Below are positions 22,713-24,464 of a stretch of 64,000 nucleotides of DNA, piece after piece. Position numbers and translations under genes: made by a program. Origin of the DNA: Nitrospinales bacterium. Lineage in GTDB: Bacteria > Nitrospinota > Nitrospinia > Nitrospinales > VA-1. The stretch spans positions 672,001 to 736,000 of the forward strand of contig OZ253496.1 of the NCBI GenBank assembly GCA_965262115.1, in the 5' to 3' direction. Numbering within the stretch: the stretch's first letter is position 1; every line of letters starts with the position of its first letter. Below the pieces are notes generated by a model. It was given only the letters and a program-made list of their open reading frames with translations. It was not told the origin of the DNA and searched no databases.

Positions 22713-23036
22713 AAGGGATTGGGCTTCATCGTGATTTTGATTGGGGTGGGACTCGGGGCGATCAACACCGGCAACAATCTTTCATATTTGATTCTGGCCA
22801 TGTGTTGCAGTTTCATCGTCGTCTCCGGGATTTTGTCCAAAATGAGCTTGAAAAAACTCAGCGTTGAATGCGAGGCACCCGCTTATCTTTATGCACAGGA
22901 ACCCGGCTCTCTGAAGCTCCGCAATCACAAAAATTGGGAACCCTCCTATTCCATTCGCGTTAAAGCAGCTCAATCCCGTCAACTCTTCTCTCCGGAACCG
23001 AGAGCTTTGCATAACCCCGACCCCTGCGGGGCATGA
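22713..23036 (+). pseudogene. DUF58-family gene fragment fused to the moxR remnant
   Basis: GLGAINTGNNLSYLILAM...VSGILS is the N-terminal DUF58 motif; broken off at the repeat cluster near 23010. Confidence 0.8.
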
Positions 23037-23097
23037 AGTTTAAGGAAATACCCGTGCCGGGCATGAAGACTAATGTTGGGGATATTACAAATATCAC
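23020..23097 (-). mobile_element. Two nested copies of a ~41-bp hairpin micro-element (inner 23049-23089)
   Basis: Inner (rc): TGTAATATCCCCAACATTAGTCTTCATG-CCCG-GCA-CGGG-TA; the outer flanks rejoin as GTGATATT-TTTCCTTAAA-CTTCATG-CCCC-GCA-GGGG-T. Confidence 0.65.
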
Positions 23098-23098
23098 G

Positions 23099-23208
23099 TC
23101 TTCGTCACGTTGTTCCTCAGAATGACAAAACAGCCTTTTATTGTCATGCTGAGCTAGTGATATTCGACCTTTGCCTTCTTGCCCCGTAGGGGTATCTCGA
23201 AGCATCTC
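23099..23208. repeat. Pair of degenerate REP-like palindromic repeats (...CTCAGAATGACA / TGTCATGCTGAGC...CGAAGCATCTC)
   Basis: Inverted pair; the second is split by a micro-element copy at 23156-23194. Confidence 0.65.
23156..23194 (+). mobile_element. Degenerate micro-element copy inside a palindromic repeat
   Basis: AGTGATATTCGACCTTTGCCTTCTTG-CCCC-GTA-GGGG-TA; removal restores GTCATGCTGAGCT|TCTCGAAGCATC. Confidence 0.6.
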
Positions 23209-23269
23209 GCTTTTCTGCTTTATCGACTTACACAAAGCTTGATCTTCCCCTGTTTTAGTGGACAGTTAG

Positions 23270-24464
23270 TTAAGAGGCATAGGCCTGTTTCTCGAATTCG
23301 GCAGGGCTGAGATAGCCGAGATATTAGTGACGGCGTTGCCGATTATAAAACACTTCGATATATTCAAAAATATCCTTCTTTGCTTGCTGACGGGTTTTGT
23401 AGTTCCGGTTATGAATGAGTTCCACTTTGAGAGTATGGAAAAAACTCTCCGCCACGGCGTTATCCCAGCAATCGCCCTTCCGGCTCATACTGCACTCTAT
23501 CCCATGAACATTGAGCAAGGCTTGAAAATCGTTGCAGGCATATTGAACCCCCCGGTCAGAATGGTGAATCAATCCCGGTTTCATGCCGCCGTTCTTCATT
23601 GCCATATTTAAAGCTCTCATTACCAACCAACGGGTTATCCAACGATCCATGGCCCAACCAATAACTTTACGGTGGAATAAATCCAGCGTCACCACAAGGT
23701 ATAACCAGCCCTCTTGAGTCGGGATATAGGTGATATCCGAAACCCAGCATTGACCGGGCTCAGCAACATTAAACCGCCGTTGCAGTTTGTTTTTTGCCAC
23801 CGGGTGATTATGTTTGGAATCGGTTGTCACCCTGAACTTTCTTTTGTGCTTGGCAACGATTCCATGCTCGCGCATAAGACAGGCAATACGATGCCTGCCA
23901 ATGGCATATCCCTTGTCTTTCAAGTCCTCATGAATTCTGGGACTGCCATAAGTCTGGCGACTCTTCTTATAAACGGTTTTGATCTCATCAACCCATCGCT
24001 GCTTCTCACGGCTCCTCAGGCTCTCGGGGCGGCTCAGCCAGGCATAGAACCCACTTCGTCCCACTTCCAGAACCCGGCACATCGGGCTTACCGGAAATGC
24101 TTCTCGATGATCCCGTATAAACCGATATCTCATTGGGAACCCTTCGAGTACCCCTTCGGGGCATGAAGACAAATGAAGAGGACATCACAAAGATAACTGC
24201 CGCCTTTTTTAATATGTCCCGCTCCATACGAAGGCGAGCGTTTTCTCGCCGCAACTGCTGCAACTCATCTCCCGGCTTAAGCTGTCCTTTGCCGGGAAAC
24301 GCATTCCCCTGATCCTCCTCATACTCCTGTTTCCAGCGACCCAGAAGGGCAGAACGGATTCCCAGATCCCGGGACACCCGGGCAATGCTATCGCCTACTT
24401 CAATAACCAATCGAACCGCTTCTAACTTGAATTCTTTACTGAAACTCCTGCGTTTGGTTCCCAT
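23270..24464 (-). pseudogene. IS3 transposase orfA/orfB, disrupted
   Basis: OrfA HTH (FSKEFKLEAV); OrfB DDE ([21 protein letters not shown]); 41-bp insert at 24149-24189; premature TAA at 23324-26 before YLGYLSPAEFE. Confidence 0.9.
24149..24189 (-). mobile_element. 41-bp micro-element inserted at the IS3 orfA/orfB junction
   Basis: rc TGTGATGTCCTCTTCATTTGTCTTCATG-CCCC-GAA-GGGG-TA; exact removal restores KKAAVIFSKGSQ* overlapping the orfB ATG. Confidence 0.8.

Follow-up and report, generated by a model that had tools for sequence, protein, structure and literature searches.

A gene-less 39–41-nt hairpin element of Nitrospinaceae with exact insertion and end-to-guide covariation

The window analysed here (a stretch of 64,000 nucleotides (nt) of a Nitrospinales bacterium, GenBank assembly GCA_965262115.1, contig OZ253496.1, positions 672,001–736,000 of the forward strand) contains five copies of a hairpin repeat of about 40 nt, one of them inside an insertion sequence (IS) of the IS3 family. 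This repeat is almost certainly a real and mobile element: its ends are fixed, exact empty sites exist, copies are nested in one another or stand in tandem, and base 1 covaries with base -16 in a pairing-type manner. It is interpreted here, with a probability of roughly 60%, as a gene-less unit of 39–41 nt which inserts exactly, likely as a single-stranded DNA circle, and is served by an enzyme acting in trans. The preliminary description of this DNA had proposed a tiny gene-less element which inserts precisely and without target duplication into other repeats, into itself and into the IS3, and the empty sites and flank statistics presented below bear this out.

Anatomy, distribution and exact insertion

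The genome-wide census, named in the preliminary description as a check, was done in the source genome (2.68 Mb, one contig) by iterative excision after 23 IS110 copies had been taken out. It gave 337 copies of 38–43 nt, 327 of which measured 39–41 nt (163 of 39, 73 of 40 and 91 of 41 nt, with 10 of other lengths), while 26 appeared only once inner copies had been excised. Four shuffled genomes produced 2, 3, 7 and 3 matches, so that a few of the 337 copies must be false; in the window, the 3' motif had 5 matches against 0 in 100 shuffles. The consensus reads YGTGATRT, a variable middle of 12–14 nt, YTTCRTG, CCCS-GNA-SGGG and TA, with T, C or A as base 1, and is broader at base 1 and in the middle than the form proposed before. 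There is a single hairpin per element, at its 3' end, with CATG, CGTG or CTTG at the foot, and the ends YG...TA are not inverted repeats. The stem was CCCC/GGGG in 182 copies, CCCT/AGGG in 14 and CCCG/CGGG in 73, the last being the compensatory change already described for one window copy. The 3-nt loops, previously thought to vary, are not freely variable: 313 of the 337 copies have a GNA loop, a type which forms very stable DNA hairpins (PMC3201870). In total, 257 distinct sequences were present among the 337 copies. The copies in the window and their hosts are listed below.

23019..23098, minus strand: outer copy, 39 nt; a C1/A-16 non-pairing variant that ends in TC; the inner copy interrupts it after base 9
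23049..23089, minus strand: inner copy, 41 nt; CCCG-GCA-CGGG stem, T1 pairs with A-16
23099..23126, minus strand: host repeat, a CGTC/SRM-like hairpin; the outer copy is inserted at GAAGA|ATC
23143..23208, plus strand: second host repeat, CGTC/SRM-like; split at GAGCT| by the following copy
23156..23194, plus strand: copy of 39 nt; A1/T-16 type with the guide CTTG
24149..24189, minus strand: copy inside the IS3, 41 nt; 14 nt past the slippery run
45626..45665, plus strand: copy of 40 nt; one stem mismatch (GGGC)

All five copies had been noticed before, four of them with exact coordinates, whereas the outer copy proved to be one base longer at each end and to terminate in TC, not TA. Uninterrupted counterparts amounted to 20 copies for the GAAGA|ATC junction type and 21 for the type of the second host repeat, and a nested site of the same type as that of the inner copy had 5 uninterrupted matches in the source genome. 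Directly before this repeat nest, at 22139–23036, two genes lie in short pieces, the first of them by its motifs a MoxR-type ATPase gene. A longer paralog is present at about 391 kb of the source genome.

The empty-site comparison suggested in the preliminary description produced exact empty sites in IS3 relatives, in paralogous repeats and at orthologous sites. All four IS3 relatives aligned from other genomes (G016, G055, G003 and G042) were without exactly the 41 nt, at ATCTT|(C/T)TCG, and kept the ATGA overlap of orfA and orfB (GTGA in G016), in agreement with the earlier claim that removal of the 41 nt restores the IS3. Among 278 flank pairs of the source genome, 48 had an exact uninterrupted junction elsewhere, 74 had one with differences and 156 were without a paralog; the clear junctions CCCC|GAA, GAGCT|TGT and GAAGA|ATC place base 1 inside the insert. 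At one orthologous site (L447, 6863–6901), exactly 39 nt (CG..TA) were skipped by single contigs in two runs from two studies. Comparison with the relative G019 (95% identity, 1.2 Mb) yielded 93 sites with orthologous flanks, of which 32 were shared, 26 absent and 35 complex; since turnover affects entire nests of repeats, few sites differed cleanly by a single element.

Target duplication was absent: the 3-bp flanks matched at 1 of 364 sites against 2.4 expected. Nesting in or adjoining another copy was seen at 71 of the 364 distinct sites, at recurring points. Genes were avoided, with 7 of 289 sites in cores of open reading frames (ORFs) of at least 150 amino acids against 62.5% expected; an apparent insertion in ssnA turned out to lie in a repeat after a truncated ssnA, and a site in an ABC gene was a false positive. 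CGTC/SRM-like or DUF559-type repeats held 149 of the 289 sites. At least one more family of short-palindrome repeats, 100–250 nt long, hosts many copies in the intergenic nests of the source genome. The target bias was weak (G at -5 in 68%, purine at -3 in 80%, A at -2 in 2%, A/T at +2 in 77%) and resembled the element's own 3' end, a comparison which is confounded by the host repeats; target sites were only a little closer to hairpin loops than controls (34% vs 26%). The variable middle was rejected as a target guide (z from -1.1 to 1.7 in five tests, no clean complementarity between element and flank). There was no bias in orientation towards transcription (55 sense vs 46 antisense).

In a survey of 120 genomes of the phylum, the strict pattern was present in 37 including the source genome (36 of 119 others), and the reversed pattern, used as a control, in none. 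The positives comprised 35 of 69 other family genomes and one genome outside the family; by genus, the pattern occurred in g1 (20/22), g10 (6/6), g7 (1/1), g8 (6/17) and g9 (2/11), and in none of the genomes of g2–g6, g11 and g12. Full-length copies were also found in one KSB1 bin and one Marinimicrobia bin, for which binning errors are possible. Among titled sequence records with the motif, 70 of 80 were Nitrospina or Nitrospinota, and one motif-bearing locus was 95.6% identical to the source genome over 203 nt. Orphan 3' ends, considered as separate forms, are 5'-truncated copies. An Rfam search gave no match for the element, a blank which in itself is not evidence, and a description of the element was not found in the literature searched. 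A Firmicutes bin (G061; L088, L123, L210–L216) contains tandem 20–24-nt units of the form TTTCATG-stem-GNA-stem-TA, one of them identical to the last 20 nt of the element, with no enzyme gene seen beside them; judged by their sequence, these units are possibly a sister module in another phylum.

Covariation of the ends with an internal guide

After the stem pair, the strongest covariation was that of base 1 with base -16, which are Watson-Crick partners in 307 of 337 copies (T-A 189, C-G 79, A-T 39) against about 151 expected from the margins, and in 228 of the 257 distinct sequences. Pairing was as prominent at other loci (293/334, with search patterns that under-sample the A-T type) and in the relatives G013 (194/215) and G019 (at least 102/111). 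On a spanning tree built without columns 1 and -16, the two columns changed jointly on 87 of 477 edges where 32.7 were expected, going from pair to pair in 82 of these, while eight control column pairs analysed alongside had no excess of joint change. The neighbouring pairs are near-fixed: G2/C-17 in 302, T-15/A-1 in 316 and G-14 with T-2 in 318 of the 337 copies.

Since these pairs between ends and guide are kept, the junction TA|YG of a joined circle would pair with CRTG and extend the hairpin to 8 bp. In DNA-circle folding of the five commonest copies, the 8-bp rod was predicted on the top strand in all of them and on the bottom strand in none. In examples of tandem pairs of unlike copies, base 1 matched its own guide and not that of the upstream copy, which points to a putative intramolecular intermediate. 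For the copy inside the IS3, the guide would be located as follows.

24162..24165, minus strand: CATG, the predicted guide, at the foot of the hairpin; would base-pair with both sides of the circle junction, TA of the 3' end and TG of the 5' end

Tetranucleotide guides located 5' of the hairpin foot select the cut sites in the IS200/IS605 and repetitive extragenic palindrome (REP) systems, as described in PMC6006769 and PMC8266576. In the mechanism proposed for the element, CRTG at the hairpin foot of the top strand would pair with both ends together, TG with the terminal TA and CR with the initial YG, and both cut points would come to lie side by side in one 8-bp stem. A single strand exchange would then set the circle free and close the donor, and insertion would be the same reaction run backwards. 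Because the words paired with the guide both lie inside the element, targets would be only loosely chosen, and tandem copies would follow from a target bias that resembles the 3' end of the element itself. As to the chemistry, the likeliest would be either an HUH-type strand transfer through a phosphotyrosine or cutting by a nuclease, with a ligase closing the self-splinted nick; the enzyme may be unrecognised or only transiently present.

An IS3 carrying the element and an IS110 targeting it

The IS3 of the window and its relevant positions are:

23240..24529, minus strand: IS3-family element, 1290 bp with the insert; NF033516; one of 7 unsplit copies
24130..24133, minus strand: ATGA overlap of the old orfA stop and the orfB start, read from the sequence
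24204..24210, minus strand: A-AAA-AAG, the -1 frameshift heptamer of the IS3, read from the sequence
24154..24155, minus strand: AG core (CT on the transposase strand), the IS110 insertion point in other copies; empty here

The source genome has 7 unsplit copies of this IS3 and 10 further 3' halves which follow an IS110, with 98.8–100% identity; the insert junctions were filled in 17 cases at the 3' side and 15 at the 5' side, and empty in none. With the insert in place, translation shifted by -1 terminates at the former orfA stop, frame 0 is open up to 152 amino acids and the orfB frame stops early in the insert, so that one -1 shift cannot make OrfAB. Depth in one run was about 15 times that of a single copy. 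None of the contigs of four runs skipped the insert at 24149–24189, with the limit that assembled contigs drop rare forms, while in all four runs contigs broke at the 24154–24155 core with IS110 end sequence. Two IS3 copies keep 3-bp duplications; counted were these two same-copy matches and those rebuilding known repeats. Duplications matched across copies were discarded: 8 of 19 left ends had such a match, close to the roughly 6 pairs that chance predicts. Since all copies are filled and near-identical, the IS3 spread after the insertion, probably in trans, with recoding or gene conversion as alternative routes. The earlier view that the insert disabled the IS3 therefore stands in so far as one -1 shift misses orfB, but not for the fate of the IS, which kept spreading in the filled state. 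Although every copy in the source genome holds the 41 nt, which taken alone would speak against an insertion, the relatives hold empty sites and the insertion stands.

The 1.19-kb IS110 is present in 23 full copies in the source genome (NF033542, 225 bits where the cut-off is 140). All 23 have GCCCCG(A/C)AG at the junction on the element side, 22 of them within recognisable elements. In the left end of the IS110, a loop holds TTTACCCCT and CCCGAAG, which correspond to the 3' end of the element around the CT core, as far as guides can be read from the sequence. Two diverged copies (88%), which may be one event, lie in elements with a GCA loop and carry CCCGCAG; the predicted bridge-RNA guide would thus change with the loop, from GAA to GCA. 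A broken relative in G013 also adjoins an element. Homologs occurred in 4 of 36 family genomes and were not found in G007, G018, G022 and G031; this distribution and the cut in the loop make the IS110 a parasite of the element and not its mover. Swapped flanks among the IS110 and IS3 copies suggest that rearrangement between copies may have taken place. Compared with the IS621-type IS110 described in PMC11208160, the companion shares the NF033542 transposase, the CT core and left-end RNA guides, left and right, which match a repeated palindrome, the RNA being a predicted one here; it differs in that its target is a mobile micro-element and that two diverged copies have a guide change fitting the GCA loop. 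Six full copies, at 1418004, 1462465, 1634234, 1895287, 1933892 and 2013363, fall short by about 10 bp and carry a frameshift in the transposase, and an extra tandem IS110 left end at 2144620–2144781 of the source contig stops within the predicted bridge-RNA region.

Known systems, search for a mover and rival explanations

In its logic, the element resembles the IS200/IS605 and REP systems reduced to one hairpin, but it qualifies as a member of neither. With IS200/IS605 (IS608, ISDra2) it has in common the lack of target duplication, a strand-specific fold and a predicted single-stranded circle (PMC6006769). A guide of four bases on the 5' side of the hairpin foot which appears to set the cut points, in the element by covariation only, is shared as well. 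In contrast to that family, it has one hairpin and one guide for both ends instead of a subterminal hairpin at each end, its guide reads its own first bases and not a target tetranucleotide, there is no fixed target, and no TnpA was found in the source genome. The likeness to REP/REPIN and RAYT lies in extragenic hairpins, present in their hundreds, whose foot is a tetranucleotide and which serve as IS110 landing sites, and in guide pairing at the dinucleotide level (PMC8266576); however, the foot is CRTG and not GTAG (or GTGG), no RAYT gene was found, and instead of an inverted doublet the element has one asymmetric module that shows exact ends and a 5' tail. CGTC/SRM and DUF559-flanked repeats are likewise small hairpin repeats of the same intergenic nests and are the commonest hosts. 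Ssn genes are reported to be flanked by SRMs (PMC3733652, PMC11893778), whereas no gene flanked in the manner of these or the DUF559 repeats was found for the element. It differs from miniature inverted-repeat elements of DDE transposases by the lack of terminal inverted repeats and target duplication. Integron attC sites combine RYYYAAC ... GTTRRRY boxes with a stem that is long and imperfect. These boxes are absent from the consensus, and an integrase-like gene at 2.165 Mb does not track the element. Unlike group II introns or retrons, the element has no intact reverse transcriptase (RT) to go with it, the match being broken in the source genome and not found in G007 and G019.

By habit, the element belongs with the small dispersed repeats (SDRs) of Nostoc. 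SDR1–8 of Nostocaceae, from the work of Elhai et al. in 2008, are reportedly gene-less, 21–27 nt long and self-nesting, insert in repeats without duplication and have a conserved fold. They are not known to have a mover, and a reverse transcriptase has reportedly been discussed for this role. The element shares self-nesting, insertion in repeats, lack of duplication and a conserved fold with them, but has 39–41 instead of 21–27 nt, belongs to another phylum and pairs both ends with one internal guide. According to PMC5861425, SDR5 may insert in HIP1, and no SDR-like repeats were found in cyanobacteria rich in HIP1 beyond the Nostocaceae.

Several results weigh against the interpretation as a trans-mobilised circle. 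PF01797 (Y1), a profile which matched in 6 of 14 controls, had no match in the source genome or in the searches of G013 and G007, the two other richest genomes; Y1 genes occurred in 7 of 22 genomes of the same genus, and ten Y1 loci had no strict element match. The RAYT profile NF047646 had no match in the source genome, and an HUH-motif scan there gave 13 motif matches and no candidate. The predicted circle has an energy of about 0 kcal/mol and a second helix of just 2 bp, so a protein must hold it, and no free circle was observed in contigs, which are unable to show one since tandem copies give the same junction. Insertions had no replication-strand bias (169 vs 168 by local GC skew, a test weakened by the rearranged genome), whereas a preference for the lagging-strand template is described for IS608 and ISDra2 (PMC6006769). 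Finally, many copies probably spread passively in host repeats, where each host site has one sequence type, which means that 337, with 200 distinct short flank pairs among the copies, overstates the number of independent insertions. A single-strand hairpin mechanism gains support from the end-to-guide covariation; for the HUH mover of the preliminary description, no Y1, RAYT or HUH-motif candidate was found.

A transposase bounded by the same two ends, also suggested there, was not found in the source genome or in 2.4 Mb of G013 and G019 (1.2 Mb each), and neither was a gene-bearing long form as an autonomous partner. PF04986 (Y2, IS91/ISCR) had no match in the source genome, but the profile was also silent in 14 of 14 controls. 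Genes flanked on both sides by the element and paralog families, when checked, included no mover, and ORF clustering over 296 element loci (genomes, metagenomes and viral contigs) revealed no gene or enzyme family enriched beside it. Y1 and RT were rejected since their presence does not track element copy number, as was the four-helix-bundle PF05635 (5 of 61 genomes); the catalogued GIY-YIG genes of the source genome led to no mover. Tyrosine recombinases likewise led to no mover; the integrase-like gene is missing in G013 and G007, and genera without the element have it. This gene (2164564–2165397, L072) appears to stop short of the usual catalytic tyrosine and has 88–98% identity over its length in 11 same-genus genomes. 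The DUF559 genes were rejected as well, being flanked by their own repeats. The source genome has 9 PF04480 matches (e.g., 377385, 735444, 1034378 and 2140509), with DUF559 genes between inverted CCCCTC...GAGGGG repeats; by its layout, such a putative unit is like a gene-plus-repeat mobile unit, for which no description was found in the literature searched. An element split at the same locus in G019 (L438:19071–19598) and G013 (L530:about 1430–1954) contains an insert of about 490 nt with a 123-aa gene. The gene has no Pfam match, one predicted-structure match naming the PD-(D/E)XK family, and matches in 3 of 120 genomes, with a 36% homolog inside an attC-type array; it was dismissed as an autonomous partner, being a single orthologous cassette-like insertion. 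The first 60,000 nt of the source contig have long low-complexity tandem repeats, a broken reverse-transcriptase match and no element copies in the bins shown; this part of the contig might come from a host and have been joined on as foreign DNA.

Movement through RNA, with a folded or circular copy taken into a nick by RT or host polymerase and the end pairing serving RNA folding or ligation, is rather unlikely. It would suit the G-T pair kept on one strand only (G-14/T-2), the high sequence diversity and the RT reportedly discussed for the Nostoc SDRs, but RVT_1 gave only a broken match in the source genome, occurred in 10 of 36 family genomes, with none found in G007 or G019, and was present in the element-free G024 and G032; moreover, transcription orientation bias is lacking, the GNA triloop is of DNA type and Rfam had no match. 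That most copies are passive, a few old insertions multiplied by slippage or recombination within CGTC/SRM and DUF559-linked repeats and the IS3, is improbable as a full account. About half of the sites (149/289) lie in such repeats, nests come and go at 95% identity with few clean differences among the 93 sites, and slippage can grow tandem arrays. Against this stand the same sharp ends in unrelated hosts, exact presence or absence of single elements at orthologous sites, recurrent nesting at fixed internal points and repeated pair-to-pair changes of 1/-16, which need selection on the element itself. The IS3 empty sites and the orthologous skip largely refute passive spread as the whole explanation, and it stays a partial one.

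A canonical Y1 transposase of the IS200/IS605 or RAYT type visiting lineages now and then is also a poor candidate. The guide at the hairpin foot, the lack of duplication, Y1 genes in part of the genus and the age of many copies (32 of 93 sites shared at 95% identity) would fit, but the Y1 loci have no strict element match beside them, there is neither a GTAG foot nor a fixed target tetranucleotide, one hairpin is present only, and no enzyme family is enriched at the 296 loci. It is very improbable that the element is removed from RNA like a micro-intron, keeping the IS3 transposase fusion working. All 17 IS3 copies have the insert, the IS3 spread afterwards and the fold joins both junctions; however, efficient splicing should make the element tolerated in genes, while the 7 of 289 sites in long-ORF cores concern ORFs that are repeat-derived, IS3-related or over-extended, and the top strand, which is sense in the IS3, has no overall sense bias. 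Mobilisation by the resident IS110 recombinase has hardly any likelihood: its 23 copies are tied to the element hairpin and IS110 leaves no duplication (PMC11208160), but it cuts in the loop and not at the element ends, the hairpin is the target that its guides match, and homologs are limited to 4 of 36 family genomes.

The trans-mobilised circle remains the preferred interpretation. A wider proposal is tentative and rather doubtful, namely that the copies are single-stranded, self-splinting minicircles of DNA, some 40 nt in size, whose two ends a single four-base guide would align for excision and joining. Their mover would belong to an enzyme class other than Y1, RAYT, IS91, IS110 or RT, which would also serve look-alike micro-elements in other phyla. 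If true, it would represent a new minimal transposition system and explain the spread of SDR-type repeats. For the question of how the smallest repeats of bacteria, such as SDRs, CGTC repeats and REPs, move, this family offers a sharp and testable model drawn from sequence alone, with exact ends, a predicted 40-nt circle of defined junction and a 1/-16 pair whose swap should redirect the cut. The IS110, with a predicted guide that would track the loop of a mobile target, would be a natural case of bridge-RNA retargeting, and the element itself reshapes intergenic DNA in a clade of Nitrospinaceae.

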